A stretch of 64,000 bases of DNA from an uncultured Planctomycetales bacterium (GTDB taxonomy: Bacteria; Omnitrophota; Gorgyraeia; Zapsychrales; Fredricksoniimonadaceae): NCBI GenBank assembly GCA_964572155.1, contig CAZNDZ010000001.1, forward strand, positions 1,146,786 to 1,210,785, read 5' to 3'. Below, piece after piece: positions 38,128-63,566 of this stretch; positions within the stretch are counted from its first letter, which is position 1, and every line of letters begins with the position of its first letter. The translations under genes were made by a program, and so were the position numbers. The notes below the pieces were generated by a model. It ran no database searches. It was not told the origin of the DNA and saw only the letters and a list, made by a program, of their open reading frames with translations.

Positions 38128-38189
38128 TATATATAAGATAGTTCAAATGAAGATTGACATTTGCCCTCAGTGGAGGTGTAATATTTCCA

Positions 38190-39722: not shown

Positions 39723-39724
39723 CC

Positions 39725-40333
39725 ATGTTTGATCTTGAAAAACTAAAGAATTTTGATTATCAAAATATTGACTATAAAAAGTTATTAGAAACGCTTTTGA
39801 CCAAAAAAGATTTATTTGCATCGGTCATTATCGGTGGCGTTGCGCTTGTTTTACTCATAGGTTTGGCCAAGAATTTTTTTAGTCAAACAGCATCCATTAA
39901 TTCAGAAATTTCTTTGTTAAAAACAAAAATCGACGTGATTGCTGATTATGAGTCGAGCCATAAGCAGATCACAAAATTCCTAAAATCTGTTCCGTCGCCG
40001 TTAGACGAGGATTTGTTTTCTACAACTATTGCCGATATGGCTGCGACGAATAATGTGACGATTGTGTCATTTGTGCCGGGTGTAAAAAAAGAAGAAGAGC
40101 TTTCTAATACAATTTCAGCTGCGTTTGAGATTGAGGTTTTGAATTATCAGTCGTTGTTAATGTTTTTAAGTGCCCTTGAGAAAGCGCCACTGGCATTGAG
40201 GGTTGATAATTGTGTTGTAACAAATGCATCAACTCGAAACAGCATGATGGATGATATTAAAAAGAATCAAGACAAAGACCAGCAAACAATTTCAGTTCAT
40301 TTAGATTTAAGTTCTGTTGAGTTGAAAAAATGA
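39725..40333 (+). CDS. pilO: PilO/GspM-like inner-membrane assembly protein
   Basis: Short cytoplasmic N-terminus, one TM (VIIGGVALVLLIGL), then a coiled coil and C-terminal domain. Position after the PilM/N fusion. 202 aa. Confidence 0.5.
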   Translation: MFDLEKLKNFDYQNIDYKKLLETLLTKKDLFASVIIGGVALVLLIGLAKNFFSQTASINSEISLLKTKIDVIADYESSHKQITKFLKSVPSPLDEDLFSTTIADMAATNNVTIVSFVPGVKKEEELSNTISAAFEIEVLNYQSLLMFLSALEKAPLALRVDNCVVTNASTRNSMMDDIKKNQDKDQQTISVHLDLSSVELKK

Positions 40334-40767
40334 TAAAGATATTCTTATATAGCATTTTGTTCTCTACGCTTCTTTTGAGTGGTCGTGTTCAGGCAGAAGA
40401 GGATCGTGCCGTTGATACGCCCTTGGAAGATGATGTGGTTGATTTTCTAAAACTCGAAAATCCATTCTTGTCGCAATTACCTAAACAACAAATAATTAAA
40501 ACACCTGTTGAACAACCGAAACAAACAGATAATAATGTAAATAAGTTATTTAATGGAATACCACCCATTGAGCAAACCCCTGTGCTTTTACCAAACTTTG
40601 ATATTCAAGGTGTGGTATATGGGGTTAAAGATCCACAGGTCATTATCAATGACCAATCGTATGGGCTAAATGAATATGTGTTGGGCGCTCAAATTAAATC
40701 AATTAGTAAAAAAGGCATAACATTCTTATTTGGTGGGAGGGACTTTAGTGTTGCATTGGACAATTAA
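40330..40767 (+). CDS. pilP: PilP-like periplasmic protein with a signal peptide
   Basis: Signal peptide, low-complexity linker, C-terminal beta-domain (IQGVVYGVKDPQVIINDQSYGLNEYVLGAQIKSI). Lies upstream of the secretin. Confidence 0.5.
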   Translation: MIKIFLYSILFSTLLLSGRVQAEEDRAVDTPLEDDVVDFLKLENPFLSQLPKQQIIKTPVEQPKQTDNNVNKLFNGIPPIEQTPVLLPNFDIQGVVYGVKDPQVIINDQSYGLNEYVLGAQIKSISKKGITFLFGGRDFSVALDN

Positions 40768-42271
40768 GATAACGGTGCTGTTTTTATTAATTTTTCTTAT
40801 CCCTAATCAGTTTATTCTGGCAAGTTACGACTTGGCGGATAGCCATTTTATCAATCCTAAATTTTCTAAAAAGATTTCACTCGATTTTAAGAATGCCCCC
40901 TTGACGGAAGTGCTGAAAGTGTTTTCAAAACAAGCAGGCATGAACTTTGTTGCAAAAGTTGATATAAGCGCGATGCGTGTCACGATGTACCTAGACAATG
41001 TGCCTGTTGAAGAAGCGTTGGAGTATGTTTTGAGTTCTAATGATTTACAGTCAGAAGTGTTGACCGATGATAATACTTTTGCTGTTTCAAAGAAAAAAGA
41101 TACAAGTGCCCGAATGGTAACAAAAGTATTTAATCTAAAGCATGCTTCAGTGACCACATCTGCACTAAAAAATACGTTTTCATCATCTTCGTCATCGTCT
41201 TCTTCGTCTTCCTCATCATCTTCATCTGGTTCATCAGATGCTTTTAGTGTTGCATCGTTGGGGGGGATAGTTGATGCGGTTAAGATGGTGCTTACAAAAA
41301 ATGGCAGTTTAGTTGAAGATTCTAGAACTAATAGTTTGGTGATTACGGATTTAGAGAGTCAAATGCCTCTTATAGAAGAGACAATTAATAAGTTGGATGT
41401 TGTTGTTGCCCAAATTCTCATAGACGTAGATATGTTAGATATTTCAAAAGCAACATCAGACTTAATGGGCGCGAAGTGGGGAGATACAATATTTAATTTT
41501 CAAGGTGCGGCTAAGAACTCCGTCTTGCCTTTTAATGAATCAGCAATTTTAAAAAATGGTAAAGCAGATTTAACCTCGACATCTATTGGAACATTAAGCG
41601 ATAATTCAGGGGATAGTCCATATTCTGCAGGTAAGGTTGATTTTACAGGTATGAATGTGATTATGAATTTCTTAAGAACACGTACGGACACCAAGAACCT
41701 CGCTCGTCCAAGAATTCTAACATTGAATAATCAAATGGCTCAAATTCAAGTTTCTGCAAATGAAGCTGTTGGTACTAAAACCAATAATTTCTCAAGTACA
41801 AGTACAACGTCGAGCGTTGAAGCAGAACGTACGCAAACTGGTGTTTTTCTAACGGTGACGCCACAAGCAGATCTAGAAACACGAGAGATATTAATGGCAG
41901 TATATCCAAAAGTCATTCAGTCTCGAACTGGTGCGACGTTTGGTTCAACAACATATAAAGATGCTGAAGAGCGTGGTACAAAATCATTCTTGCGCGTCAA
42001 AGATGGAGAAACAATCATTTTAGGTGGCTTGCTACGTAACGATGATTCAAACACCATTACCAAAGTTCCTTTCTTAGGTGATATTCCTTTTCTAGGAAAT
42101 GCTTTTAAACATAAAAATCTTCAAGGAACAAAACGAGAACTAATTATTTTCTTAACCCCACATATCTTAGATGATTATCGCAGTTATCAAGATCAAATCA
42201 AGATGCATACGCCTCAGTTCCGTTGGGATGAAGTCAACAAAGCCATCGCTGAGATAGAAAAAGAAAACTAA
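40730..42271 (+). CDS. pilQ: Secretin of the PilQ/GspD family. The start is a TTG or GTG codon between 40730 and 40751. Contains a 16-residue poly-Ser tract.
   Basis: C-terminal secretin motifs (ETIILGGLL, VPFLGDIPFLGNAFK, LIIFLTPHIL). Secretin_N-like repeats. 513 aa. Confidence 0.85.
   Translation: MVGGTLVLHWTIKITVLFLLIFLIPNQFILASYDLADSHFINPKFSKKISLDFKNAPLTEVLKVFSKQAGMNFVAKVDISAMRVTMYLDNVPVEEALEYVLSSNDLQSEVLTDDNTFAVSKKKDTSARMVTKVFNLKHASVTTSALKNTFSSSSSSSSSSSSSSSSGSSDAFSVASLGGIVDAVKMVLTKNGSLVEDSRTNSLVITDLESQMPLIEETINKLDVVVAQILIDVDMLDISKATSDLMGAKWGDTIFNFQGAAKNSVLPFNESAILKNGKADLTSTSIGTLSDNSGDSPYSAGKVDFTGMNVIMNFLRTRTDTKNLARPRILTLNNQMAQIQVSANEAVGTKTNNFSSTSTTSSVEAERTQTGVFLTVTPQADLETREILMAVYPKVIQSRTGATFGSTTYKDAEERGTKSFLRVKDGETIILGGLLRNDDSNTITKVPFLGDIPFLGNAFKHKNLQGTKRELIIFLTPHILDDYRSYQDQIKMHTPQFRWDEVNKAIAEIEKEN
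41180..41236 (+). repeat. Serine tract ((TCN)16 GGT TCA TCA) inside the secretin gene.
   Basis: Read directly. Encodes S16-G-SS. Confidence 0.9.
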
Positions 42272-42277
42272 TATTTT

Positions 42278-44008
42278 ATGGCCCGCGCCCGCTTAGGTGA
42301 AATATTAATCAAGCAAGGCTTGGTTACCGAGAAGCAGCTGCAAGAAGCGATCAATGCCCAGAAAATTCAAAAAGCGCGCATTGGTGATGTTTTGCTTAAG
42401 TTAGGCATGATCAAAGAAGAGGATTTGGCAGCGGCGCTCGGTGCTCAGTTGTTAATCCCGTATGTCACCTATATGTCAGGTCTACTTAAGCCCAAGCAGG
42501 GCCAAGGCCTTGAAACTATCATTCCCCACGAGTTTGCTCAAAAAAACATTATCTTACCACTATCACGCAATGGTAATTCTTTAACATGTGCCGTATATGA
42601 TCCATTGGATTACTTGCTCCTTGATAACTTAAAGATTTTAACCAATTGTGAATTAAATCTAGTTATTGCCACTCGCAGCGATTTAGTGAAAGCCATCAAA
42701 GAGTTTTATTTGTTTGATGGTGGTTCTGAGAATAAAGGTGGGTTGTTAGATAAGGCTGTTGAGAGTTCATATGATTTTGATGCAGGAAATCCAGCGCCGA
42801 TAACATCAACATCGTCGGGAGATACTGAGCTTAGCATTGACAGCCTTGTTGCTAAAGCCGAAGAAGCGCCTGTTATTAAGCTAGTTGATTTGATCATTCG
42901 ACAAGCCATCGATGAGAAAGCCAGTGATATTCACATTGAGCCCTTCAAGGATAAAATTGAAATTCGATATCGTATCGACGGTGTTTTATATCAAATCCCA
43001 CCACCGGCAAATCATTTGCATTTACCCATAGTGTCGCGTATCAAAATTCTATCTAAAATGGATATTGCAGAGAAGCGTTTGCCTCAAGATGGTGCTATTT
43101 CAGCAAGACTGGAAGATCGTACGGTAGATTTGCGTGTGTCTACATTGCCCACGGTGTGGGGTGAAAAAGTTGTTTTGCGTATTTTGGATAAAGGTGCAAC
43201 AAAACTAGAACTTAGCCAATTAGGTTTTGATCAAAAACAATTGGGTTTAATTCGCAAAGCCTTGGAGTCTTCTTATGGTTTAGTTTTTGTCACGGGACCA
43301 ACAGGTAGCGGTAAATCAACCACCTTGTATTCAACGCTCAATGAAGTGCTTGACCCAACGAAGAATATCATGACAGCTGAAGATCCTGTTGAATTTAAAA
43401 TCGAAGGAATTAATCAAGTTGGGGTACGCAATGAAATTGGCTTAACCTTTGCAACCGCTCTTAAAGCATTTTTACGTCAAGATCCCGACATCATCATGGT
43501 CGGGGAAGTCCGTGATATTGAGACCGCGCAAATTTGTGTGCGTGCCGCTTTAACAGGTCACTTGGTTCTAAGTACATTACACACCAATGATGCGCCTTCG
43601 GCTGTAACCCGTTTGGTTGACATTGGTGTTCCTTATTATTTATTAACTCCTTCTTTGTTGCTCGTTATTGCGCAACGCTTGGCACGGAAATTATGTTCTA
43701 AATGCAAAGAACCCTACGAAGCTGCCGGCCAAATGGTTGGTGAATACAAGATCAAGGCGGATTTGATTTACAAAGCCAAGGGTTGTGAAGAATGTAATCA
43801 TAGTGGTTATAAGGGGCGTGTTGTTATTTCAGAAGTTATGTCATTAAATGATGAGATTAGGCGTTTAATGGCTCAAAGCGGCGCATATAGTGACATTCGA
43901 GATGCGGCTAGAAAGAACGGCATGGACACTTTATTTGAATCTGGGATGAAAAAAGTTGAAGAAGGTGTAACAAGTCTGGATGAAGTCTTAGGCATTGTTG
44001 CAGATTAG
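42278..44008 (+). CDS. pilB: Type IV filament assembly ATPase (PilB/GspE family)
   Basis: Walker A GPTGSGKSTT, Asp box, His box, tetra-Cys zinc motif (CSKC...CEEC), N-terminal GspE_N-like domain. 576 aa. Confidence 0.9.
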   Translation: MARARLGEILIKQGLVTEKQLQEAINAQKIQKARIGDVLLKLGMIKEEDLAAALGAQLLIPYVTYMSGLLKPKQGQGLETIIPHEFAQKNIILPLSRNGNSLTCAVYDPLDYLLLDNLKILTNCELNLVIATRSDLVKAIKEFYLFDGGSENKGGLLDKAVESSYDFDAGNPAPITSTSSGDTELSIDSLVAKAEEAPVIKLVDLIIRQAIDEKASDIHIEPFKDKIEIRYRIDGVLYQIPPPANHLHLPIVSRIKILSKMDIAEKRLPQDGAISARLEDRTVDLRVSTLPTVWGEKVVLRILDKGATKLELSQLGFDQKQLGLIRKALESSYGLVFVTGPTGSGKSTTLYSTLNEVLDPTKNIMTAEDPVEFKIEGINQVGVRNEIGLTFATALKAFLRQDPDIIMVGEVRDIETAQICVRAALTGHLVLSTLHTNDAPSAVTRLVDIGVPYYLLTPSLLLVIAQRLARKLCSKCKEPYEAAGQMVGEYKIKADLIYKAKGCEECNHSGYKGRVVISEVMSLNDEIRRLMAQSGAYSDIRDAARKNGMDTLFESGMKKVEEGVTSLDEVLGIVAD

Positions 44009-44020
44009 GGGTAAGGCTTT

Positions 44021-45244
44021 ATGCCAATGTTTTCATATGTAGCTAAAGATTCTAGTGGTAAGACCAAGAAAGACATGGTGGAATCTTTAAATGAGCAAAC
44101 CCTCATTGACCGATTGCAAAATGATGGGTATTTTATCATTTCAATTGCACCCGCGATTCAAAAAGAAGCACCAAAATCTGACCAACCAAAAGTTCAAGTA
44201 AGAAAATTCTCGCACAATAACGTTACACTAGAAGATCAGCTTGTTTTTGCCAGACAATTGGCAACCATGTTGGATTCAGGTGTTACGTTGATGCGTTCAT
44301 TAACGGTTATTGTGGATCAGGTGGAAAGTAAGAAGCTTTACGAGATCATCACGGATTTACGGAATAACGTTGAGCAAGGTAAAACGTTAAGTAGTTCTGT
44401 CGCTAAATATCCAAAAGTATTCTCTCAATTTTGGGTTAGTTTGATTGAAGTTGGGGAAGCGTCCGGTACCATGCCGATGGTTTTAGAGAAATTAACACAA
44501 TATACTGAACAGCAAGCCGCATTTAGATCAACCATTGTTTCTGCGCTTGTCTATCCTGGGGTTCTTTTTGTGATTTGTATGGGGGCGATCGTCTTTTTCG
44601 CATTATTTGTGGCGCCACGATTTGAAACAATTTTTACAACCATGCACGTTGAGCTTCCAGGATTAACGGTAGTTTTATTATTTGTTTTTAAGTTTGTAAA
44701 ATCAAATTTTCTCTTAATTATCGGAGCTTTTGTAGGGGCCTACTATTTTATAAAACAGTATTTAAGTACTCATTTGGGTAAGTTAACGTTTGAGCGGATC
44801 ATGTTTAATATGCCTGCTGTCGGTAAGATTTATAAGTTAATCATCGTTGAACGTTTTGCTGCACAAATGGCGATTCTCGTTGATAGTGGGGTACCTATCC
44901 TGTATGCCTTAGAGATCACGGAAAAATTAGTTGAGAATATCACCTGTTCTGTAATCGTGGCTCAAATTCGTGAGGCTGTGCGTGAAGGTAAGCTGTTGGC
45001 TGACCCAATGCAAGAAAGTGGGTTTTTCCCATCTATGGCGGTGCAAATGATCAAAGTAGGGGAAGAAACAGGTCAGCTTGGAAAAATGCTCAAACATGTG
45101 GCTGAATTCTATGAGCGTACAGTCCAAGAGTTTATGAAACGCATTGGTACAATCATTGAGCCAGTCATGCTTGTTTTTATGGGTGGAATCATTGGGACCA
45201 TTGTTTTGGCTATGTTCTTGCCAATGTTTAGTTTAACAGGCTAG
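44021..45244 (+). CDS. pilC: Inner-membrane platform protein (PilC/GspF family)
   Basis: Duplicated GspF domain with three TM segments, 407 aa, follows the ATPase. Confidence 0.85.
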   Translation: MPMFSYVAKDSSGKTKKDMVESLNEQTLIDRLQNDGYFIISIAPAIQKEAPKSDQPKVQVRKFSHNNVTLEDQLVFARQLATMLDSGVTLMRSLTVIVDQVESKKLYEIITDLRNNVEQGKTLSSSVAKYPKVFSQFWVSLIEVGEASGTMPMVLEKLTQYTEQQAAFRSTIVSALVYPGVLFVICMGAIVFFALFVAPRFETIFTTMHVELPGLTVVLLFVFKFVKSNFLLIIGAFVGAYYFIKQYLSTHLGKLTFERIMFNMPAVGKIYKLIIVERFAAQMAILVDSGVPILYALEITEKLVENITCSVIVAQIREAVREGKLLADPMQESGFFPSMAVQMIKVGEETGQLGKMLKHVAEFYERTVQEFMKRIGTIIEPVMLVFMGGIIGTIVLAMFLPMFSLTG

Positions 45245-45456
45245 GGCCAAAGCCCAGCGTAGCCAAAAGTAAAACATTACTGGCGAAGCTGGGTTGCAGA
45301 GGGGCAAAAAATATGTTATATTCGTTGCATAGTAGAAGTAATGATGATATAAAAACATTGTATAAAGGTAAACTATCCGCAAGGGTGGGGCACAAAGCTA
45401 TAGGGCCTGTTGATATAGGACAGGCAGCCAGTTACCAATGGAAAGCTGTAATGTGC

Positions 45457-45498
45457 ATCCATGCTGCGGAAAATAAATAACGCGGGATGGATTTTTTT
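45457..45498 (+). terminator. Terminator-like hairpin (12-bp stem with one mismatch and one G-U, 12-nt loop) followed by T7. It sits inside the 300-nt pilC-pilin spacer, about 50 nt before the pilin ATG.
   Basis: ATCCATGCTGCG ... CGCGGGATGGAT TTTTTTT, read directly. Confidence 0.4.
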
Positions 45499-45545
45499 AT
45501 TTTAAAACACATTTATTCATAACATAACAAAAAAAGGAGAGTTAC

Positions 45546-45992
45546 ATGAAATTAAGTAATAAACGCAATCAAGGGTTTACACTCATAGAAATCATCATCG
45601 TTATTGTCATCTTAGGTATCTTAGCAGCTATTGCCTTGCCAAAATTGACAGAAAACATTGACCGTGGTCGCGCAGCAGAAGCCTTCTCAATCGGTTCCTC
45701 TGTAGCTAAAGCATTTGATCGTTGTTTATCTGTTGAAACAGGTGGTGCAACGCCAAGTTCAACAAATGTGGGTAATTGTAATTCATTTGCTAAAATTAAT
45801 ATGGCAACACCTCCAGCCACTAATTTCACGTATTCTTTAGCTAGCTCTGGTACAACCTTGACATTCGGTGCTGTTGGCGCTTTCACTGGTGCTGCAGCAG
45901 CGGATTCAATCACATTTACATTCGTGGGTGATACAGGTGTTACAACAAGAACCTGCGGTACAGCAGGTAAGTTTGACAAAATGTGTAAATAG
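45546..45992 (+). CDS. pilA: Major type IV pilin / pseudopilin with a class III signal peptide (MKLSNKRNQG|FTLIEIIIVIVILGILAA)
   Basis: Prepilin peptidase site G|FTLIE with Glu+5, hydrophobic N-terminal helix, Ser/Thr/Gly-rich C-terminus. AGGAG SD. Confidence 0.85.
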   Translation: MKLSNKRNQGFTLIEIIIVIVILGILAAIALPKLTENIDRGRAAEAFSIGSSVAKAFDRCLSVETGGATPSSTNVGNCNSFAKINMATPPATNFTYSLASSGTTLTFGAVGAFTGAAAADSITFTFVGDTGVTTRTCGTAGKFDKMCK

Positions 45993-46020
45993 TTGAGTAC
46001 TGTTTCTTTCTTAGTGTGGT

Positions 46021-46055
46021 ACACGGGGCGAGTTTAACTCGCCTCGTGTTGTTTA
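46021..46055 (+). terminator. Hairpin downstream of the major pilin gene (12-bp stem ACACGGGGCGAG / CTCGCCTCGTGT, 5-nt loop) with a weak T-tract. Probably a partial terminator.
   Basis: Read directly. Confidence 0.4.
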
Positions 46056-46079
46056 GAGTGCAATAATCGAGGAGTATGT

Positions 46080-46505
46080 ATGTCTAAAAAGGGTTTTACG
46101 ATCATTGAAGTCATTATCGTTGTTGTCATGTTGGGCATCTTGGCCGCTGTTGCTATACCAAAAATCCTTGCCCCTAATGAAATAGTGATTTCATCTGAAG
46201 GGCAACATACGCTAACTGTTTTGTTAAGTGCTCAAAAAAGATATAAGTTAGAGAATAGTGCGTACACCACAACATTAGACAACCTTGATGTTTCCATAAC
46301 ACCAAAGTATTTTGACACGGTCACGGCATTAGATGGTTCGAGTGCAAAGACAGAAGTGGCGTCGCTTGCACGGATAAGTAATTTGGTATACACGCTGTCT
46401 ATTGGTGCGGAAGGTGCCAATGCAGGGATTATCTATTGTTCTGGTGCGGGTTGTACCTCTATTAAATGTACTAAAGGTGCGGGGAGCAATCAATGCAATC
46501 TATAA
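46080..46505 (+). CDS. Pilin-like protein 2 (MSKKG|FTIIEVIIVVVMLGILAAVAIPKI)
   Basis: Prepilin N-terminal motif and GAGGAG SD. 141 aa. Confidence 0.8.
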   Translation: MSKKGFTIIEVIIVVVMLGILAAVAIPKILAPNEIVISSEGQHTLTVLLSAQKRYKLENSAYTTTLDNLDVSITPKYFDTVTALDGSSAKTEVASLARISNLVYTLSIGAEGANAGIIYCSGAGCTSIKCTKGAGSNQCNL

Positions 46506-46918
46506 AAGCTTTTACAATGATTGAGCTGATCATGGTGGTTGTCATTATAGGTATGATGGCGCTGTTTGCTGTGCCAAATTATAATAAGTCTGTTGGTAAA
46601 ACATACGAGAAAGCGGGATCCAATAATCTATTAATCATGTATTCGGCGCAGAAGATTAAAAAGATTGGCGGGGAAAATTATCAGGCATGTAACAGTACAA
46701 GTACCTGTAATACGAATTTAAATTTGAGTCTTATCGCAAACGGTGTTGATTATTCCTGCACCACAACGGGTGGAGGAACGCCAACGGGCTTTTATTGTTA
46801 TGGGAATCGCTCGGATAATTCATTTAAGTTAAAAATAACAGAAACAGGTGGCACACCATGTTGTTGTACGGCAAATACGTGTCCATCAATCACCACAACT
46901 TGTGCAAGTTGTCCGTAG
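46493..46918 (+). CDS. Pilin-like protein 3 with a cysteine-rich C-terminus (MQSIKA|FTMIELIMVVVIIGMMALFAVP)
   Basis: Prepilin motif with Glu+5. 9 Cys in the last 90 aa, including CCC. 141 aa. Confidence 0.7.
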   Translation: MQSIKAFTMIELIMVVVIIGMMALFAVPNYNKSVGKTYEKAGSNNLLIMYSAQKIKKIGGENYQACNSTSTCNTNLNLSLIANGVDYSCTTTGGGTPTGFYCYGNRSDNSFKLKITETGGTPCCCTANTCPSITTTCASCP

Positions 46919-46925
46919 AAAAAAT

Positions 46926-47288
46926 ATGAACTTAAAGATGAACAATGCTGGTTTTTCTTTAGTTGAAGTCATCGTTGCTTCTGTTATTTTTTCTATTGCT
47001 GTTGTTGGTATTTATGCTTCTTTGTCCTCCGTTAAAGAGCAGTCACAAAATATTAGTGAAGTTGCTTTAGGTGCAGCGCTTTGTGCTCAACAATTTCTTG
47101 AGAGTAAGCGTGCGGCGGTTGATATGCGAGATTGGGGTTCAGGAGGCCAATTGGCCGTTACAGGAAGTGCTCAGAATGCCGCTGATTGCACTCAAACAAC
47201 CGGTGCTACAGCAACCACATATCATTTAACATATCTTATTACGGATGCAGGTAATGCAAGGAAAGCTACGGTTACAGTGACATGGTAA
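46926..47288 (+). CDS. Pilin-like protein 4 (MNLKMNNAG|FSLVEVIVASVIFSIAVVG). Start chosen at 46926, not the ORF-track start at 46848.
   Basis: Prepilin cleavage motif G|FSLVE. The upstream extension overlaps the preceding gene. Confidence 0.7.
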   Translation: MNLKMNNAGFSLVEVIVASVIFSIAVVGIYASLSSVKEQSQNISEVALGAALCAQQFLESKRAAVDMRDWGSGGQLAVTGSAQNAADCTQTTGATATTYHLTYLITDAGNARKATVTVTW

Positions 47289-47872
47289 AAAGTCCAAAAA
47301 TCCATAATGCCAAGGGTATAACGTTAAGTGAGTTGTTGATTTCCGCTGTAATTGTGGGGATTGTGATGTTGGGCGTTGTATCTGCTGATTTTGCCATTCA
47401 GAAATTTTATCGCGACTCTTCATCTGGAGCGGTCTCAGGATTTAATGCGATTGCAATGCTTAATAATATTTCGAACACTGCCTATAGAGCGACAGGGAGT
47501 TTTACAAATTCTTCAGGTATATCAGATCCAGGGATTCTGGTTGATACCAGCATTGCAACAGCCAATGGCGCGAGTGGTGTTGGCGCTAAGACATTTTGTA
47601 TTCGAACGACGGACAATCCTCCATGGCAATGCTATTATAGGGATGATGATGGGTATTTATATTACTGTTCAAAGAATTCAGCGACTATATGCACATTATC
47701 AGATACCAAGGTAAGACTTGAACGATTAACGAGTATGTCCGCATCATTTGTAAGTAATACTAATGTTGGAAGTCAAAGTTGTATCTTTACTATTTCTCTC
47801 ACTGTTCCTGACACAGATTCCACTACTAAAACATATACCGCTAAAATATCACCTCCAAACCATCGGCTATGA
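47282..47872 (+). CDS. Pilin-like protein 5 (MVKSPKIHNAKG|ITLSELLISAVIVGIVMLGVV), a larger minor (pseudo)pilin
   Basis: Prepilin-type N-terminus with Glu+5. 196 aa. Confidence 0.65.
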   Translation: MVKSPKIHNAKGITLSELLISAVIVGIVMLGVVSADFAIQKFYRDSSSGAVSGFNAIAMLNNISNTAYRATGSFTNSSGISDPGILVDTSIATANGASGVGAKTFCIRTTDNPPWQCYYRDDDGYLYYCSKNSATICTLSDTKVRLERLTSMSASFVSNTNVGSQSCIFTISLTVPDTDSTTKTYTAKISPPNHRL

Positions 47873-49278
47873 CAAGTTTTTTTCTGGCATTGTTGATGTT
47901 CTTATCTTTTGTTCTAAATATTTACATGCTTAAAGATGGCCACAATTGGGGGGATGATTTTGCCCAGTACATCATCAATGGTTTTAATTTCATTCAATTA
48001 AAGCCATACATGAGTGGTGTCATGTTGGATCAATCATTAATTTCGTTCCCAGGTTTTAGCCTAATGTTAGCGCCATTCTTAAAAATATGGGGATTAAATT
48101 TTTTGATCCTTAAATGTTTGATGGTGGTGTTTTGGTATGTTGCTGTTTTGGCGATCTATAAAATTTTAAGAGATATGACAAACAAAGATTATGCGTTTTT
48201 GATCGCTGCATTATTATCGTTGTCTTCATTCTTTTTTATCTTTAAGCAGAATATATTGTCGGATGTGCCGTTTTTTTGTCTTGTCTGCATTGCGCTTTAT
48301 CTATTTGAGAAGCATAAATGTTGGAATCTGTTTTTAGTTATTGTATCTTTAGCATTTTGGACGAGACCAGTTGGGTGTTTGCTCTTTTTTGCAGGAGCTA
48401 TTGCCTTGATACAAAGAAAATCTTGGGGGCGGGCGTTTGCAGTACTTGCACTTTTTTTAATTAATTGCGTTGCAATATTGATGGTGATGGGGGTTTCGAA
48501 GGATTATGCCAGTTTAATCCATTTTAATCCTGCGTCGATATTTTATGATGTTAAACATGGGGCAGAAGTATTGTTTTGCGCTTTGTTCATGTTGATTTTA
48601 CCTGCACAAACAGATTTGTCCTTGATGATTGTGATCGGTTTTATCAAAATCATTAAAATCTTATCGGTCTTTATTTTGGCAGGCATTGTTCTCAACGTAT
48701 TATTAAATATATTGGCTAGGCGTTTAACATTTTTAGAATGTTTTGCTTGTTTGTATTTAGTTGTATTCATATATTTTGCATCGCATAGCCAAACGCCACC
48801 AGATGCATTCGCTCGGTTTATGTTGCCTTTACTACCTATTGTGTTCATTCAAATGTATTCTGTGTATAAGTTGAGCATATGGGGACGTCTAAGATTTAAC
48901 CTGTGTTTCATTTTGATTTGGATTTGTTTGATTGTGAATGTTTACAATATCTATTTTAATAGAAACTTTAATGATTCTGTTCTAACAAGAGGCAATGTTG
49001 AAATGATAGAGTGGGTGAAGAATAATGTTAGTATTGATGAGCATTTTATGTTCCGTCGACCAAGGTTTTTAGCTTTAATGACAGGAAGGGTTGGCGCTGC
49101 GCCTCTAGCTTCTTCTCAACAACGAGGCAATTTCGATGAAAGAATTGCGACATTAGGTATCAAATATATTATTCTATTTAAGGAAACAAGTGTGTATCTA
49201 TTGAATCAATTGAAGGATGATGCTCATTTTGAAGTTGTTTGGGAAAATTCAACGTTTAAGGTATTTAAGGTTATTTAA
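47869..49278 (+). CDS. Polytopic membrane glycosyltransferase, GT-C fold (ArnT/PMT-like), 469 aa
   Basis: At least 10 predicted TM helices. Acidic first-loop motif HNWGDDFAQY, as in the DE/DD motif of GT39/GT83 enzymes. Soluble C-terminal domain. Confidence 0.5.
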   Translation: MTSFFLALLMFLSFVLNIYMLKDGHNWGDDFAQYIINGFNFIQLKPYMSGVMLDQSLISFPGFSLMLAPFLKIWGLNFLILKCLMVVFWYVAVLAIYKILRDMTNKDYAFLIAALLSLSSFFFIFKQNILSDVPFFCLVCIALYLFEKHKCWNLFLVIVSLAFWTRPVGCLLFFAGAIALIQRKSWGRAFAVLALFLINCVAILMVMGVSKDYASLIHFNPASIFYDVKHGAEVLFCALFMLILPAQTDLSLMIVIGFIKIIKILSVFILAGIVLNVLLNILARRLTFLECFACLYLVVFIYFASHSQTPPDAFARFMLPLLPIVFIQMYSVYKLSIWGRLRFNLCFILIWICLIVNVYNIYFNRNFNDSVLTRGNVEMIEWVKNNVSIDEHFMFRRPRFLALMTGRVGAAPLASSQQRGNFDERIATLGIKYIILFKETSVYLLNQLKDDAHFEVVWENSTFKVFKVI

Positions 49279-50957
49279 TGCGCGTCAAATGCATCTTATT
49301 TATTTTGCTTTTAGTCACCATCACATATACAAATTCACTTTTCAATGATTTTGTTGGTGATGACAGCGTCCTTTTTGTCTCAAATACTTTTTATAAGTCT
49401 TGGGACAATCTGCATCGATTATTTGAGAGGGGTTATGCATTTGATAGTAGTAAGGTGGATATCAAGTCACAGACAGATTTTGGGAGTGGGAGCGTTGCTT
49501 ATAGACCGGTCGATAATCTAACATACTTTATTGATTATTGGTTATGGGGGATGAAGCCTTTCGGGTTTCATCTTACGAACCTATTGTTGCATTTGTGCAA
49601 CGTTGTACTTGTTTTTTTATTGCTACTACGGCTAGGGGTTTCAACATATGTTGGTTGTTTTGTCGCGCTTTTATTTGGATTACATCCCGTTTTATCTGAA
49701 GCTGTTTGTGCCATTGGATATCGCGCTGATTTATTAGCCGCATTCTTTGTGCTTTTGTCGTTTTATACGTGGATTATCTATACTCAACATCAACGAATGT
49801 TGATGTATTCTTTGTCTCTTTTATTCTTTTTCCTTGCAGTCTTTTCCAAAGAATCAGCCATTGTTTTGCCAGTTTTTATTCTTGCTTATGAAGGCATTGC
49901 GGGCCGTAGATCATGGGTTAGGCAAAGTTTTTTTTGGTTGATTATGATGTTTTATTTGTATGTTTATTTATTTGTTTTTCCGTCTCCGGAACTTCATGTA
50001 AAACGATTATTAGGGCAAGATATTCTTGAACATGTCCATGTGATGTTAAAGATTTTTGTAACGTATATTCAAATGCTTTTATGTCCGTGGCAAACACATC
50101 CCATACCATCGTTATATATCCCTACATTACATAAGAATTTGGCAGAAACTTTACAGATTATATTTCTGATGATCGGGCTAATGAGTATTGTTTTGTTTTT
50201 TAAGAAGCGTAATAAGATTATTTTTCTAATGTTTCTATGGTTTTTGGTTTTTTATATTCCTATTTCTAATCTTGTTTCTATCCCAAGTCCGATAGCTTTA
50301 AGATTTATGTATTTACCGTCTATTGGTTTTATTTGTGCTGTAGCAATATTGTTGCATCAGAGCATTGGCATGATCTCAAAGAGATTCCTAAATTTTTTTA
50401 TTATGTTTATTTTAATCATATGTATGTTTTCTACGATATTGTTGAACACCATTTGGAAATCTTTGCCTGATGTTATGTTAACGTGGTCAAAATATTACAC
50501 TGATTCCTGGAAGGCTGATTTAATGATGGGTCGTTTATATCATAAGAATAAAGACTACAAGAAAGCGCTTGAGTATTATTTTCAGTCTATCCTTAAGGAG
50601 GCAAGAGTGCAAGATGTGAGGATTGATTATTATACAGCTTTAAGCCTTCTTGAATTAGGGCAAAAAGATAGGGCCCAACGTCATTTGGAATTTGTAATAC
50701 ATGCTTGGCCAACTTTCTCAAGAGCTTCTTATGTTTTGGGGGGATTACACAGAGAAAGAAAAGATTTTGAGAAAGCTATAAAATACTATGTTATCGCCGC
50801 TTCGTATGACCCCAAAAGTGTTGGGTATTATGTGCCTTTGATAGATATGTACACTCAGCTGGGAGAGAAGGAAAATATTACGGAACTATTGAATATTGCG
50901 AAAGATTTTCTCACACCTGAAGAATTCCATTCATTAGAAAACAGAAGTTTGTTATAA
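49278..50957 (+). CDS. Polytopic GT-C-like glycosyltransferase with C-terminal TPR repeats (TMTC/PMT_2-TPR architecture), 559 aa
   Basis: First-loop FVGDDSVLF motif, many TM helices, C-terminal TPR units (YKKALEYYFQSI..., FEKAIKYYVIAASYDP). Paralogous to 52788-54260. Confidence 0.5.
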   Translation: MRVKCILFILLLVTITYTNSLFNDFVGDDSVLFVSNTFYKSWDNLHRLFERGYAFDSSKVDIKSQTDFGSGSVAYRPVDNLTYFIDYWLWGMKPFGFHLTNLLLHLCNVVLVFLLLLRLGVSTYVGCFVALLFGLHPVLSEAVCAIGYRADLLAAFFVLLSFYTWIIYTQHQRMLMYSLSLLFFFLAVFSKESAIVLPVFILAYEGIAGRRSWVRQSFFWLIMMFYLYVYLFVFPSPELHVKRLLGQDILEHVHVMLKIFVTYIQMLLCPWQTHPIPSLYIPTLHKNLAETLQIIFLMIGLMSIVLFFKKRNKIIFLMFLWFLVFYIPISNLVSIPSPIALRFMYLPSIGFICAVAILLHQSIGMISKRFLNFFIMFILIICMFSTILLNTIWKSLPDVMLTWSKYYTDSWKADLMMGRLYHKNKDYKKALEYYFQSILKEARVQDVRIDYYTALSLLELGQKDRAQRHLEFVIHAWPTFSRASYVLGGLHRERKDFEKAIKYYVIAASYDPKSVGYYVPLIDMYTQLGEKENITELLNIAKDFLTPEEFHSLENRSLL

Positions 50958-50999
50958 GCATTGAATCTTAGAAGTTAAATCAGTTCTTGGTCAGATTAT

Positions 51000-52787
51000 A
51001 TGTCATATAATAACGACATGATGCAGAAAAAAGATCCTTTTATAACTGTCTTATGGGGTATTTATTTTGTCTATGCGTTTTTATTGTTTTATCACCCCGT
51101 TGAAACAGAAGATGTTTGGTGGCATTTAGCTACGGGTAAATGGATTCTTACGTGTGGACAGATTCCTGCTTTTGATCCATTTCCTTATGGGTCAGAAAAA
51201 ACGCCATGGATATGTCTACATTGGTTAGGAAGTTCTTTCTTATACTTTATTTATAGTATTGGTGATTTATTTGCTTTAAAAGTATTTCGGTCTGTTTTTC
51301 TAGTCTTGGTTTTAATTATTCTTTATTGGAAAACTAAATCTAGGATGCCCATAGGATTGCTTTTTATATTAATGATATTTATAGCCTTTGCTTTAGATAG
51401 TCGTGGATTATTAAGACCAGATATTTTTAACCATTTATTTATTACAATATATTTGATCATTTTCTTTGAGTATTTTCATGATTTGAGATCTAAGCGTTTA
51501 GTGCTTATTCCTTTCCTTGGGTTGCTTTGGTTTAACATACATATGGGAGCTTATATTTATGGCCTTGGTATCATTTGTGCGTTTCTTTTTGTGGCCATTA
51601 TAGAAAGGTCAATTCAGAAAGTTAGAGCATTGATTTGGGTTCTTTTGTTTTCTCTTTTAGCCTTCTTAATTAATCCATATGGCTTAGATGGTCTGCTATA
51701 TCCAGTTAAAGTTTTCTTAATCCCAGAATTCTTTGATTTTTACGCTAAAACTAGCACAACAGGTGAATCTAGGTCTTCCATTGAGTTATTATTTAGTCTG
51801 GAGACCGCATATTATATCCCACTGGCCATCACAAGTATTTGGGCTATCTGGCACTCAAAAAATAAGCAGTTTGCTTTATCAATTTTGTTTTTATTGGGAC
51901 TTTTTGCGTTTATTTCCATGAAGAGGAATTGTGTGTTCTTTGCACTGATGAGTTTCTGTGTAATCTTTTATGGTTTGAGGGATTTTGATGTGTTTGAGCG
52001 GCTCTCTAAAAACAAATATTATAAGATTATTACTAAGGGTATTCTTTGTGCTGTGTTAATTTTTTTATGTTTATCAATATTTAATATTTTTCGCTTAGCT
52101 GGAATTTATGAACAAAAGAAAATTTCTTATTTAACTATTGATGCTAATTTATACCTTGAGAAAGCTATGCTTCAGTTGAAAAGAGCAAATGTATATGGTG
52201 GTGTTTATACGAATGATATAATTGGTAATAAAGTAATCTGGTCAGGTTATCCACATCTAAAGCCATTTTATGATGGGAGGCAATTAGATAATCAGAGATT
52301 TAGAGATTATGTGTCATTGAACTTAAATACGAAGGAGTCTTGGGAAAGAATACAGCAGAAATATGGTTTTAACATAGCAATAATTACTTCTGCAGACATG
52401 GTATTTGATTATTTAAAAACAAGAGAAGATTGGCAGTTAATTGCTTTGTCGGGATACATTTTAATTTATGTGAAGAAGGGAGTTTTTAACTTGCCACAAG
52501 AATTTGATCAATATGAAGAAAAGTTAAATAAAGAAGTGTTTTCTAATAATGAGAGAGATAAGTTGAAGGCCTTGCTTTCTGGTCCGAGGGAAGCAAGATG
52601 GTATGAAAAGTTTGTCATGCAAGATTTTGTGATGATAGACACATATTCAGAAGCGATTGTCTTGTTTAAGCTTTCTTTAAAAGACGCGGGATTAAAGCGT
52701 TTATTGGCAACATTGGAATTTAATAAAGATTATTTGACTGTTCAAAGAGTTAAAGAAGCATTGAAGAGAATGTCCATATTAATATAA
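51000..52787 (+). CDS. Polytopic membrane glycosyltransferase-like protein (GT-C fold), 595 aa
   Basis: Acidic first-loop ETEDVWWHLATGKW, at least 11 TM helices, large C-terminal soluble domain. Confidence 0.45.
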   Translation: MSYNNDMMQKKDPFITVLWGIYFVYAFLLFYHPVETEDVWWHLATGKWILTCGQIPAFDPFPYGSEKTPWICLHWLGSSFLYFIYSIGDLFALKVFRSVFLVLVLIILYWKTKSRMPIGLLFILMIFIAFALDSRGLLRPDIFNHLFITIYLIIFFEYFHDLRSKRLVLIPFLGLLWFNIHMGAYIYGLGIICAFLFVAIIERSIQKVRALIWVLLFSLLAFLINPYGLDGLLYPVKVFLIPEFFDFYAKTSTTGESRSSIELLFSLETAYYIPLAITSIWAIWHSKNKQFALSILFLLGLFAFISMKRNCVFFALMSFCVIFYGLRDFDVFERLSKNKYYKIITKGILCAVLIFLCLSIFNIFRLAGIYEQKKISYLTIDANLYLEKAMLQLKRANVYGGVYTNDIIGNKVIWSGYPHLKPFYDGRQLDNQRFRDYVSLNLNTKESWERIQQKYGFNIAIITSADMVFDYLKTREDWQLIALSGYILIYVKKGVFNLPQEFDQYEEKLNKEVFSNNERDKLKALLSGPREARWYEKFVMQDFVMIDTYSEAIVLFKLSLKDAGLKRLLATLEFNKDYLTVQRVKEALKRMSILI

Positions 52788-54260
52788 ATGCTGCTGAGTT
52801 TTCTTGATTCAGATCAATGGATACCCGTGAAATTTAACGATATTTTAAAATCCTATATTTTCGTAACTAGCCTAATCTTAGTAGTTTTCTTTGTCTATTA
52901 TCCTTGTTTGCAAGCTCAGTTTATTAATTTAGATGACCCCAATCATGTGATAAATAATCGCGGTGTTTATTTGCCTTTATTTGATTCTTTTGGTGTTATT
53001 TTTGGTCAGCTAGTTAATAAAGTTTATATTCCTTTAACAACCCTTTCTTTTAATTTAGAGCAACATTTCTTTGGGTTTAATCCATTTGTTTATCACTTTG
53101 ATAACATTTTATTACATATTCTAAATGCTATTTTGGTGTTGTTATTAGCAAAGCGTTTTGGGTTATCAACTTTAAGTAGTTTTCTTGTTGCACTATTATT
53201 TGCAATTAATCCAATGAAAGTTGAATCTGTGGCGTGGGTATCTGAACGTAAGGATTTATTGTATGCGTTCTTTTATATTTTGTCGTTAAATCTATATTTA
53301 TCATATTGTAAAAGTAGGTCATCATGGTTATTCATTGCTACATTATTGATGGGGATCTTAAGCATATTAGCTAAACCTATGGCAATAAGTTTACCGTTGA
53401 TATTATTGTTATTTGATTGGTATTTTGGTCGTTTAAATGAAAAAAATGTTTTACTTGAGAAGCTTCCGTTCTTTTTATATTGCATAATCATTGGTTGGAT
53501 TAGTTTTTATTTAAATAGTAGTCATTCAGTTCACAATATTTTTGAGTCGATTTTGATATGGATTTGGTGTTTTGATTTTTATTTATGGAAGTTTTTCTGG
53601 CCTTTTCAAGTTTATCCTTATTATCAACTGCCAGAACCTATTAGCATATTAAACTGGCCATATTTTCTATCATCATTTGGATTTCTATTGCTCTTATCTG
53701 CGTTGATTTATTGGCGAAATAACAAACATCTTATTTTTGGTTTTCTTTACTATTTATTCTCAATTTTTTTCTTAATTTCTTTTGAGAATTGGGGTTTTAG
53801 TGTGGTTTGTGATCGATACATGTATTTGCCTTGTTTGGGTTTTTGCTTGATGATAGGTGTGGCATTCTTTGAAAAAGTTCGGATTAAATCTTTATCCTTG
53901 ATTTTCATTGTTTTTTATTTATTTCTTTTAGGAATCAAAAGTTTTTATCAGTGTAGTATCTGGGAAAATTCGTCGACTTATTGGAATGAAATGTTGAAAC
54001 ATTATCCTGCAAGGTCTTATGTTCTACGCGGGGACGCCTACTTTGGGTACGGTCAAGATAGTAAAGCGTTAATGGATTATTCCAGTGCAATTCGATTCAA
54101 TCCTTTATATGCAGAAGCCTATTTTAAACGTGGATTTATTTATTTTAAGATAGGGGAGTATAAGAATGCTTTAAACGATTTTCAATATGCTGTTTCTTTG
54201 GGGTATAAAGACCCAGAGCTTTATATTGGTTTATCAAAAGTTAAAGAAATCTTGAAATGA
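52788..54260 (+). CDS. Polytopic GT-C-like glycosyltransferase with C-terminal TPR repeats, 490 aa
   Basis: First-loop NLDDPNHV, a conserved block (FNPFVYHFDNILLHILNAILVLLLAKRFGLS) shared with 49278-50957, C-terminal TPRs. Confidence 0.5.
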   Translation: MLLSFLDSDQWIPVKFNDILKSYIFVTSLILVVFFVYYPCLQAQFINLDDPNHVINNRGVYLPLFDSFGVIFGQLVNKVYIPLTTLSFNLEQHFFGFNPFVYHFDNILLHILNAILVLLLAKRFGLSTLSSFLVALLFAINPMKVESVAWVSERKDLLYAFFYILSLNLYLSYCKSRSSWLFIATLLMGILSILAKPMAISLPLILLLFDWYFGRLNEKNVLLEKLPFFLYCIIIGWISFYLNSSHSVHNIFESILIWIWCFDFYLWKFFWPFQVYPYYQLPEPISILNWPYFLSSFGFLLLLSALIYWRNNKHLIFGFLYYLFSIFFLISFENWGFSVVCDRYMYLPCLGFCLMIGVAFFEKVRIKSLSLIFIVFYLFLLGIKSFYQCSIWENSSTYWNEMLKHYPARSYVLRGDAYFGYGQDSKALMDYSSAIRFNPLYAEAYFKRGFIYFKIGEYKNALNDFQYAVSLGYKDPELYIGLSKVKEILK

Positions 54261-54324: not shown

Positions 54325-54401
54325 GGGTCGGTAGCTCAGTTTGGTAGAGCGCGTCGTTCGCAATGACGAGGCCAAGGGTTCGATCCCCTTCCGATCCACC
54401 A
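54325..54401 (+). tRNA. tRNA-Ala, anticodon CGC, with encoded CCA
   Basis: Manual cloverleaf fold: acceptor GGGTCGG/CCGATCC with the G3:U70 Ala identity pair, D-arm GCTC/GAGC, anticodon stem CGTCG/TGACG, loop TTCGCAA, T-arm AAGGG-TTCGATC-CCCTT, discriminator A. Confidence 0.9.
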
Positions 54402-59319: not shown

Positions 59320-60545
59320 TGAAGCTTATCAAACAAACAGGTCAAAACATCGACAAGCTCTATAACCGTCATTTGAGCATGCGCCGTAAAGCTGTTGAGG
59401 AGAAAGTGCGCACGATCATTGATGATGTGCGTTTAAATGGCGACGATGCCTTGATCAAATATACCAAACGTTTTGATGGGGTGAAATTAACCACGCGCCA
59501 AATCAAGGTTGCTGAGAGTGAAATTTCTAGTGCCTTTGGCAGTATCACACCGGAGTTTGTTGGTCATTTAAAGACAATCATTAATAATGTGTCGAGCTAT
59601 TATAAGAAGCAAGTGCATAAGCCCTGCAAGATAAAAAATAGCGACGGAGTGATGCTTAAAGAAGAAATTAAGCCGCTTGATTCAGTTGGTATTTATATCC
59701 CGGCTGGAACAGCGCCATTGGTGTCATCGGTTTATATGACAGCGGTGCCTGCCATTATTGCTGGTGTTAAGCGTGTGGTCATCGTGACGCCACCCAATAA
59801 GTCGGGACAAGTAAATCCCTATATTTTAGCGGTAGCCAATTTATTGAAGGTCAATGAGATTTATAAATTAGGCGGGGCACAAGCGATTGCCGCTTTAGCG
59901 TTGGGCACCAAGACGGTTGCTAAAGTCGATAAGATTGTTGGGCCCGGTAATATGTTTGTGACAGAAGCCAAGCGTCAATTATTTGGATATGTGGATATTG
60001 ATATGTTGGCAGGTCCGACGGAATTGGTCGTCATTGCTAATCGTTATAGTAACCCTGAATTTGTCATTGCCGATTTAGAAGCACAAATGGAACACATCGG
60101 CGGCATGTCGATTCTATTATCAACATCCAAGCAGTTGATCAAGCAAGTCAAAGACAGGGTGGCGAATGGGTATTGCATTTTGTGCAAGAATACCGATGAA
60201 GCTGTGGATATTGCTAATCGCATCGCTCCCGAACATTTACAAATCATGACCAACAATGCTCACAGCGTTGCTAAGAATGTCCGTCATGCAGGGGCAATCT
60301 TTTTAGGGCCATATAGTCCAACAGCTTTGGGTGATTATGCGGCAGGTCCAAGCCATGTGTTGCCGACCATGGGCACGGCAAGGTTCTTTTCAGGTCTTTG
60401 TGTGTCGTCATTCCAAAAGTCTAATCACGTCATTGCTTATTCCAAAAAAGCATTAGAACGTATTCGGGAGCCTCTCGAGAAAGTGGCTCATTTAGAAGGT
60501 TTAGTTAAACACGCGGACTCCGTTAATGTGAGGTTCAAGTCATGA
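59319..60545 (+). CDS. hisD: Histidinol dehydrogenase
   Basis: HisD-family length (408 aa) and motifs (IYIPAGTAPL, AGPTELVVIA, GDYAAGPSHVLPT). Confidence 0.9.
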   Translation: MKLIKQTGQNIDKLYNRHLSMRRKAVEEKVRTIIDDVRLNGDDALIKYTKRFDGVKLTTRQIKVAESEISSAFGSITPEFVGHLKTIINNVSSYYKKQVHKPCKIKNSDGVMLKEEIKPLDSVGIYIPAGTAPLVSSVYMTAVPAIIAGVKRVVIVTPPNKSGQVNPYILAVANLLKVNEIYKLGGAQAIAALALGTKTVAKVDKIVGPGNMFVTEAKRQLFGYVDIDMLAGPTELVVIANRYSNPEFVIADLEAQMEHIGGMSILLSTSKQLIKQVKDRVANGYCILCKNTDEAVDIANRIAPEHLQIMTNNAHSVAKNVRHAGAIFLGPYSPTALGDYAAGPSHVLPTMGTARFFSGLCVSSFQKSNHVIAYSKKALERIREPLEKVAHLEGLVKHADSVNVRFKS

Positions 60546-61141: not shown

Positions 61142-61142
61142 T

Positions 61143-63204: not shown

Positions 63205-63566
63205 GCGACCCAAAATTAACAGAAATTGAAACGATACAAATCACCAAAGATAATCTAGACAAATTAAAATTTACCTCAGAAGGTTTGATACCTGCCATTG
63301 CCCAAGATATTAAAAATGGCGAAGTCTTAATGATGGCCTGGATGAATATTGATTCGCTCAAAGCCACCATCGAAACTGGCAAGGCTTCTTACTGGTCTAG
63401 ATCCCGTAAAAGTTTTTGGGTTAAAGGTGAAACGTCAGGTCACGTCCAACATGTAAAAGAAATTTATTATGATTGTGATTGTGATGTGTTGCTCATGAAG
63501 GTTGATCAAGTTGGTTCAGCGTGCCACACCATGAAGCGCAGCTGTTTTTATAGGAAATTATTATAA
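63201..63566 (+). CDS. hisI: Phosphoribosyl-AMP cyclohydrolase (HisI domain only, no HisE)
   Basis: 121 aa. Conserved WSRSR...GETSGH and CDCD metal-site motifs. Confidence 0.85.

Follow-up and report, generated by a model that had tools for sequence, protein, structure and literature searches.

The 64,000-nt stretch of DNA analyzed here (the window) comes from contig CAZNDZ010000001.1 (assembly GCA_964572155.1) of an uncultured bacterium of the phylum Omnitrophota, and the system of interest is a run of five pilin genes (P1 to P5) that leads directly into four genes encoding large membrane proteins (GT1 to GT4). From their sequences and predicted folds, all four of these proteins are assigned as GT-C-type enzymes. 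The interpretation put forward, to which we give slightly better than an even chance, is that the window holds the bacterium's main type IVa-like pilus locus, whose pilin operon runs into GT1 to GT4, and that a variable multi-enzyme GT-C cassette performs periplasmic glycosylation directed at the pilins. The topology, the lipid-linked donor, the pilin acceptor, and the stepwise action of the enzymes are parts of this interpretation that we infer.

An earlier note on this DNA had described five pilin genes followed by four co-directional membrane-protein genes, the latter beginning 4 nt inside the last pilin gene. This description was borne out. The open reading frames (ORFs) were found where it had placed them, the sole correction being the start of P4 (ATG 46926, in agreement with an independent gene call, and not an upstream GTG), and the stop codon of P5 lies over the start codon of GT1 in a 4-nt overlap (ATGA). 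GT1 and GT2 overlap by 1 nt, GT2 and GT3 are separated by 42 nt, and GT3 and GT4 abut (0 nt). Terminator-like sites within the pilin-GT block were not commoner than in shuffled sequence. A co-transcriptional arrangement of the pilins with GT1 to GT4 is supported by this gene order. All five pilins carry a class III prepilin leader, with G or A at −1, a hydrophobic residue at +1, Glu at +5, and a hydrophobic helix, and a relaxed prepilin regular expression applied to the 64-kb window returned P1 to P5 and no others. Pfam N_methyl was matched above threshold by P1, P2, P4, and P5 and sub-threshold by P3 (18.6 bits, cut-off 21.2 bits).

The identity of the enzymes was deduced from different data for each. 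GT1 was assigned by its match to Pfam PMT_2 (PF13231; 31.0 bits, gathering threshold 26.1), GT2 by its paralogy to GT4, and GT3 by its fold. The GT1 family is large (1620 representative clusters at E < 1e-3). Among 43 aligned members, PMT_2 was matched by 37 and PMT by 13, and W27, D30, F31, and R316 were invariant, with D29 variable. GT2 and GT4, the sole paralogs detectable by BLASTP (27% identity over 323 aa, E 1e-26), both end in tetratricopeptide repeats (TPRs; residues ~412 to 545 and ~407 to 487, respectively), which GT1 and GT3 are without. An acidic pair is present in the first loop of each (D28-D29 in the GDDS of GT2, and LDDP in GT4), and D49-D50 (GT4 numbering) was invariant in 42 sequences of the GT2/GT4 family; E146 and R343 were also invariant in the GT4 family. 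GT3 matched nothing in Pfam or NCBIfam, and its family is small (33 detectable homologs) and has no model in either database. The conserved positions of this family are D38xWWH42, R139-P140, N179xH181, R309, and D425xR427, with D38 found in at least 90% of 27 aligned sequences. The AlphaFold2 (AF2) model of GT3 (pLDDT 87) retrieved only STT3, PglB, AglB, DPY19, and ALG12 in Foldseek (E ≤ 2e-4), with nothing else below E 0.1, so that its structural matches are confined to GT-C folds. In the models, the loop-1 Asp sits 6 to 13 residues past the first predicted transmembrane helix, and the fold would place it on the periplasmic side. The acidic loop-1 motifs, the two C-terminal TPR arrays, and the GT-C identity proposed in the earlier note are all upheld by these data, and one Asp per enzyme proved to be conserved within its own family.

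Sequence comparison groups the four proteins into two pairs, GT2/GT4 and GT1/GT3, drawn from at least three sequence families. No BLASTP similarity was seen between GT1 or GT3 and either GT2 or GT4. The GT1 and GT3 families were connected by hhalign (95.5%, E 1.6e-8, 411 columns) in an alignment that takes in the region of the loop-1 Asp as well as the periplasmic alpha/beta domain at the C terminus, whereas profile links between the pairs were weak (56% for the GT1 and GT4 families, and 81%, across just 124 columns, for the GT3 and GT4 families). The paralogy that had been claimed therefore holds for the TPR-bearing pair but not for all four proteins. The family profiles that had been anticipated were likewise recovered in part: TPRs were matched by GT2 and GT4 and PMT_2 by GT1, but GT2 remained sub-threshold for PMT_2 (19.4 bits), GT3 and GT4 had no Pfam PMT_2 match, and DUF1736 was matched by none of the four at E ≤ 1 and was outside the 25 most frequent families of 38 GT2/GT4-family members. 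No MIR domain was found in GT1 to GT4. Wzy_C (PF04932) gave no match to them at E ≤ 1 in Pfam or NCBIfam, and no profile assigned any of them to transporter families. Member scans showed that the membrane domains of the GT3 and GT2/GT4 families are covered by no Pfam model.

The linkage of GT-C genes to the pilus locus was found to be real but variable in related loci (designated by L-numbers). GT4 orthologs (48 to 51% identity) lie directly 3′ of pilin genes in L005 and L007, where they head arrays of 6 to 7 large membrane proteins that include homologs of all four GT classes in another order and copy number. These comprise GT1 orthologs (L5_482 and L5_479, 35 to 37%), GT2 orthologs (L7_581, L7_542, and L5_571, 35 to 38%), and a GT3 homolog (L7_520b, 21%, E 8e-11). 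Syntenic Omnitrophota pilus loci with GT-C linkage were also seen in L029, L040, and L041 (PilB 67 to 69% and recA 75% identical). Because a scan seeded on the GT genes is subject to ascertainment bias, loci were also collected by PilC alone, giving 18 loci with at least 5 kb downstream, each a distinct lineage at 90% PilC identity. One to at least 6 GT-C genes were present after or among the pilins in 11 to 12 of the 18. In all, 26 GT-C genes were counted in 180 kb downstream, whereas the 127 kb upstream of PilB and the remaining ~55 kb of the window contain none. GT-C genes are interleaved among pilin genes in L029, L095, L104, and L007. Two arrays also hold a gene for a membrane acyltransferase of the Acyl_transf_3 family, which is associated with glycan O-acylation. 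The variable block, with 0 to at least 7 GT-C genes per genome, lies between the pilin cluster and rsmE-recA. Since relatives keep GT-C genes at the pilus locus, and since none of the four proteins was assigned to the O-antigen ligases (Wzy_C) or to transporters, the outcomes that the earlier note had named as contrary to its proposal were not obtained.

Pilin-adjacent arrays additionally contain proteins of 430 to 535 aa with 7 to 11 predicted transmembrane segments (L040, 11890-19894 (+); L041, 8436-9932; L005, 11528-13018; L007, 19614-20909). These gave no Pfam match and no match to the GT1 to GT4 family profiles, and they may represent further GT-C-like families.

Several observations weigh against pilin-directed glycosylation, and some of them lend weight to a tentative alternative, namely that GT1 to GT4 are general envelope glycosyltransferases, acting on lipid A or lipopolysaccharide, on another glycopolymer, or on many periplasmic or surface proteins, and encoded at a tolerated variable site. 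In a scan of species-representative genomes, a co-directional pilin cluster was directly upstream in only 3 of 79 GT4-family loci (L029, L040, and L041), and the other 76 count toward the alternative; as so few are pilin-linked, the GT4 family at large is deduced not to be pilin-specific. Pilins lie 3.7 kb from the GT4-family gene of L022, on the opposite strand. The close GT4 homologs of L009 and L010 are located away from pilins and adjoin other genes, that of L009 being beside a gene for a 1525-aa immunoglobulin (Ig)-domain protein. The closest GT3 homologs are not beside pilins, and that of L003 is within a GT2/GT4/epimerase polysaccharide cluster. GT1 has a weak match (24 bits, below the cut-off) to an NCBIfam family named for "cell surface glycopolymer formation," lipids or glycans are often the acceptors of ArnT-type and PMT_2 enzymes, and the GT-C content of the site varies from 0 to at least 7 genes. 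No GT-C gene lies within 10 kb in 6 to 7 of the 18 pilus loci, one of which is L092, the closest PilC relative, and the GT-C enzymes are therefore dispensable for the pilus. The membrane-domain profiles of GT2/GT4 and GT3 match no solved structure: searches of PDB sequences with the proteins, the family profiles, and a TPR-free GT2/GT4 profile gave TPR matches only or nothing for these domains, and for this reason the assignment of GT2/GT4 and GT3 rests on predicted folds. The annotated ORFs of the window outside 60542-63566 yielded neither a polyprenyl-phosphate sugar synthase nor a flippase. The O-mannosyl-type modification suggested in the earlier note was not substantiated, and the annotated ORFs likewise gave no gene for donor synthesis. 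The Ser/Thr fraction of pilins was the same in related loci with and without an adjacent GT-C gene (0.202 versus 0.197, p 0.70). Finally, glycosylation of the pilins of this locus by GT1 to GT4 is itself an inferred step. The envelope alternative is itself opposed by the translational coupling of GT1 to the last pilin gene, by the interleaving of GT-C and pilin genes in four lineages, by the presence of 26 GT-C genes in 180 kb downstream of PilC versus 0 in ~180 kb of flanking DNA, and by a TPR architecture like that of the proven pilin glycosyltransferase TfpW.

A location within the pilus operon would also suit a second alternative, in which the TPR-bearing proteins, or perhaps all four, are non-catalytic pilus biogenesis factors (a scaffold or chaperone, compare PilF, PilW, and Tgl) with a GT-C-like fold. 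We consider this highly unlikely. The TPR matches are generic, and Asp49-Asp50, E146, and R343 of GT4, D30 and R316 of GT1, and D38 of GT3 are invariant or nearly so across distant homologs, which is the pattern expected for catalysis. Furthermore, one-third of the orthologous pilus loci are without GT genes, unlike core assembly factors.

The pilins themselves bear on a third alternative, that the apparatus is type II secretion-like and that the GT-C enzymes glycosylate secreted cargo or pseudopilins rather than a surface pilus. The five pseudopilin-like genes do resemble a GspG-H-I-J-type set; the best NCBIfam matches of P1 and P2 are GspG, P4 matches GspI/XpsI, and the ATPase and platform protein are of the T2SSE and T2SSF families, which both kinds of apparatus share. 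However, a PilM_2 protein and a sub-threshold PilX_N-like protein are present, GspC, GspL, GspM, and GspK were not detected, and type IVa pili are reported to be almost universal in Omnitrophota (PMC10066038). We deem this alternative improbable, and the mechanism of glycosylation would be the same under either reading. Full-length homologs of P1 are the first or tandem pilins in L005 and L007.

The earlier note had also taken the Ser/Thr-rich pilins and a poly-Ser tract of the co-encoded secretin as signs of glycosylation. Both features are present. Ser plus Thr make up 21 to 28% of the pilin globular parts versus 10.6% of the other window proteins, and the Ser16 tract is part of a Ser/Gly-rich linker (window 41150-41200) found in most orthologous secretins, with a length that depends on the genome. 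As evidence, however, both were rejected, since they occur in orthologous loci without GT-C genes as well; the secretin linker does not track GT-C genes and is common in orthologs with or without them. Of separate note, P3 has 10 Cys in its 107-residue globular part, including a CCC run, which is an unusually large number of disulfide candidates for a minor pilin. In L110, the pilin cluster is immediately followed by a gene (4702-5442 (+)) for a papain-family cysteine protease of ~246 aa (Peptidase_C1, 65 bits), and ORFs of that size at the same position in L100, L104, L106, L109, L111, and L114 are probably the same gene. A Peptidase_C1 gene of this type is absent from the window.

Expression of the locus may be under the control of cyclic di-GMP (c-di-GMP). 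The 300-nt gap between PilC and P1 contains a c-di-GMP-I riboswitch aptamer that scored 59.3 bits (gathering score 35) and matched the full model (positions 1 to 87 of 87). A candidate intrinsic terminator lies between the aptamer and P1, ~40 nt before P1. Because the energy z-score of its hairpin is only −1.4, this call was made from the anatomy of a hairpin plus a U run. A second, G+C-rich hairpin follows P1 and is likely a partial terminator or attenuator that sets the major pilin apart from the downstream genes, which fits P1 as an abundant major pilin with read-through to the minor pilins and GT genes. The riboswitch and terminator 5′ of P1 would place expression of both the pilins and the GT genes under c-di-GMP control, in a direction that remains presumptive. 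The riboswitch was not conserved 5′ of the major pilin in L005 or L007, the two loci checked. Riboswitches of this class are common in related genomes, before genes other than pilins. Those of L005 (6355-6433 (−) and 8274-8352 (−)) and L009 (200-291 (−) and 11547-11638 (+)) precede genes for large secreted or Ig-domain proteins, and one of the two in L009 is directly 3′ of the GT4 homolog and 5′ of the gene for the 1525-aa Ig-domain protein. The pilus ATPase of the riboswitch-bearing locus itself carries an MshEN domain, a c-di-GMP-binding module known from MshE.

For pilin-directed glycosylation, the following mechanism is proposed. Prepilins would sit in the inner membrane, their globular domains exposed to the periplasm. 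There, before the subunits polymerize, GT-C enzymes with the active-site Asp in the first periplasmic loop would use polyprenyl-phosphate-linked sugars as donors and glycosylate either pilin Ser/Thr or a sugar that the pilin already bears. The periplasmic TPRs of GT2 and GT4 may recruit the protein substrate, as proposed for TfpW, while GT1 and GT3, with a different periplasmic alpha/beta domain, may add further or different residues. Because the enzyme set depends on the genome (0 to at least 7), the glycan would serve to diversify the surface, plausibly in response to pressure from phages or from host recognition. A more far-reaching version, which we regard as speculative and rather doubtful, is that the Omnitrophota pilin glycan is built wholly in the periplasm by sequentially acting GT-C cassettes that are swapped between lineages and switched by c-di-GMP. 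With the same reservation, a TPR-guided protein O-glycosyltransferase might initiate the glycan, other GT-C enzymes might then elongate or branch it, and O-acyltransferases might take part in some genomes; the cassettes might include at least one GT-C family (GT3-type) that is absent from domain databases. If so, multi-step lumenal glycosylation would have a bacterial counterpart dedicated to a filament, unlike the one-enzyme systems of TfpW, TfpO, and PglL.

Should the arrays glycosylate pilins, no more elaborate glycosylation loci dedicated to pilins would be known, and the presence, absence, and content of an array would be a marker of pilus surface diversity with possible effects on phage evasion and host specificity. 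Biochemistry would also gain several new GT-C families whose protein substrate is defined, and the riboswitch would couple expression of a filament and its modification to a second-messenger signal. Were the enzymes to act on other envelope glycans, the site would still be a conserved variable surface-glycan site in the phylum.

The features of the locus are collected in Table 1. The assembly-machinery order (38154-45244) is also present in L007, L040, and L041, and L007 has the entire upstream gene order in common with the window. The 5′ side of the machinery is occupied by a TPR protein, ExbB/ExbD, and a sub-threshold PilX_N-like ORF, and the 3′ side of the tRNA by rsmE, recA, recX, alaS, and hisD. 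The locus is thus set in conserved housekeeping synteny (TPR-ExbBD-PilMNOQ-PilBC ... rsmE-recA), and rsmE-recA also bound the variable region in L029, L094, L127, and L130. Other annotated ORFs of the window are housekeeping genes (MurB, IspG/H, arginine and lysine biosynthesis, and UvrA). The nearest relatives are Omnitrophota metagenome-assembled genomes (PilB 67 to 69% and recA 75% identical). The 813-aa TPR protein and the ExbB/ExbD pair (window 33812-37323 (+)) are directly 5′ of the machinery. L007 retains this order, and a proton-motive-force transducer linked to the pilus locus is suggested.

Table 1. Features of the pilus locus, with window coordinates
Feature	Coordinates	Strand	Basis
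PilM/N-like	38154-39722	+	Pfam PilM_2 domain in locus
PilO-like	39725-40333	+	
Small periplasmic protein	40330-40767	+	
Secretin with Ser16 linker	40730-42271	+	Pfam Secretin
PilB/MshE-type ATPase with MshEN domain	42278-44008	+	Pfam T2SSE and MshEN
PilC/GspF platform	44021-45244	+	Pfam T2SSF
c-di-GMP-I (GEMM-I) riboswitch aptamer, PilC-P1 gap	45357-45439	+	Rfam RF01051
Candidate expression platform, hairpin 45457-45492 then U7AUUUU	45457-45504	+	Sequence and fold
P1, probable major pilin, 148 aa, leader MKLSNKRNQG / FTLIE, strong ribosome-binding site	45546-45992	+	N_methyl 40 bits, GspG/PilA-type matches
13-bp G+C-rich hairpin after P1	46021-46049	+	Fold −29.9 kcal/mol, z −2.6
P2, pilin-like, 141 aa	46080-46505	+	N_methyl; sub-threshold Pilin_GH (24.6 bits, cut-off 28.9)
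P3, pilin-like, 141 aa	46493-46918	+	IV_pilin_GFxxxE 22.3 bits (cut-off 16.3)
P4, minor pilin, GspI/PilV-like, 120 aa	46926-47288	+	N_methyl; sub-threshold GspI/XpsI-type matches
P5, minor pilin, 196 aa	47282-47872	+	N_methyl 24.4 bits
GT1, PMT_2-type GT-C, 469 aa, C-terminal periplasmic alpha/beta domain	47869-49278	+	PMT_2, family alignment
GT2, GT-C membrane domain and C-terminal TPR, 559 aa	49278-50957	+	Paralogy to GT4, TPR matches
GT3, GT-C fold, 595 aa, C-terminal alpha/beta domain and helical tail	51000-52787	+	AF2 model, Foldseek, hhalign
GT4, GT-C membrane domain and C-terminal TPR, 490 aa	52788-54260	+	
tRNA-Ala(CGC), downstream operon boundary	54325-54401	+	ARAGORN, Rfam

The AT-rich composition of the GT block and the adjoining tRNA gene, to which the earlier note had drawn attention, are both present (G+C 0.29 to 0.36 at 48 to 54 kb versus about 0.41), but the reading of them as the sign of a foreign island was not supported. 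The low G+C is mainly in codon positions 1 and 2, the GT proteins are 43 to 49% FILVMW, and the G+C content at codon position 3 (GC3) of the GT genes (0.35, 0.34, 0.29, and 0.27) overlaps that of their neighbors (0.26 to 0.45). The AT-richness is therefore mostly due to the amino acid composition of membrane proteins. Base composition was rejected as good evidence for horizontal acquisition, since GC3 is not distinct and the flanks are housekeeping genes in conserved synteny. tRNA genes also adjoin GT4-family genes in L010 (9914-9986, ending 15 nt 5′ of the GT4 homolog) and L009 (1951-2024), which may be coincidence or an insertion hot spot.

Several known systems share parts of this arrangement. 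GtrA/GtrB/GT-C systems use extracytoplasmic GT-C enzymes with polyprenyl-phosphate monosaccharide donors and are often variable serotype-converting loci; their acceptors, however, are polysaccharides, and neither a flippase resembling GtrA nor a synthase resembling GtrB turned up in the locus or among the annotated ORFs of the window. With TMTC proteins, GT2 and GT4 share a GT-C membrane domain followed by TPR repeats. They differ from the PMT/TMTC group (PMT1/2/4, bacterial Pmt, and eukaryotic TMTC1-4) in that GT2 to GT4 fall below the PMT and PMT_2 thresholds and DUF1736, MIR, and any sequence-level match to a solved PMT are lacking. STT3, PglB, and AglB were the best Foldseek matches of the GT3 model (E 3e-6 to 2e-4, query-normalized TM-score 0.45 to 0.61) and have in common with it a GT-C fold and a C-terminal soluble domain, and AglB acts on archaeal type IV pilins and archaellins. 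Identity to GT3 is only 9 to 13%, however, and the GT3 profile is nearer the PMT_2-type GT1 family. PglL/TfpO (PilO) enzymes modify type IV pilins in the periplasm, and tfpO is directly 3′ of pilA. They are Wzy_C-family enzymes, which transfer en bloc an oligosaccharide preassembled on undecaprenyl pyrophosphate, whereas GT1 to GT4 have no Wzy_C match. The cyanobacterial pilin Ogt is a cytoplasmic GT41 enzyme. Within Omnitrophota, type IVa pili are nearly universal and are thought to attach these ultra-small, uncultivated cells to host or prey cells (PMC10066038). The text of that paper contains no occurrence of glycosyltransferase, glycosylation, or c-di-GMP terms, and a term search of another Omnitrophota paper found no passage connecting pili with glycosyltransferases.

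By its described features, the closest known system is TfpW, which transfers D-arabinofuranose to the pilin in Pseudomonas aeruginosa group IV strains (Pa5196 and PA7) (bioRxiv 10.1101/2020.04.19.049825). TfpW is a GT-C enzyme with 11 predicted transmembrane helices; its first periplasmic loop carries DDx, its C-terminal part is a periplasmic TPR domain, and its gene, directly 3′ of pilA, is needed for pilin O-glycosylation (arabinosylation) (bioRxiv 10.1101/2020.04.19.049825). Homologs occur in Azotobacter, Acinetobacter, Teredinibacter, and Kingella, and a YX6PFX7P motif has been described. GT2 and GT4 share with TfpW the same architecture (GT-C, DDx, and C-terminal TPR) and position, a likeness of described features. 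The systems differ in that TfpW is one enzyme, whereas here there are four from at least three sequence families, two without TPRs; in that related Omnitrophota genomes carry from 0 to at least 7 GT-C genes; and in that no D-arabinofuranose precursor genes were found among the annotated window ORFs. Since TfpW is already a GT-C enzyme with DDx and TPR encoded directly after pilA, the claim of an undescribed arrangement is only partly true. The principle itself was known, and what is new here is its multiplicity and variability, in the form of multi-family, hypervariable GT-C arrays in Omnitrophota.

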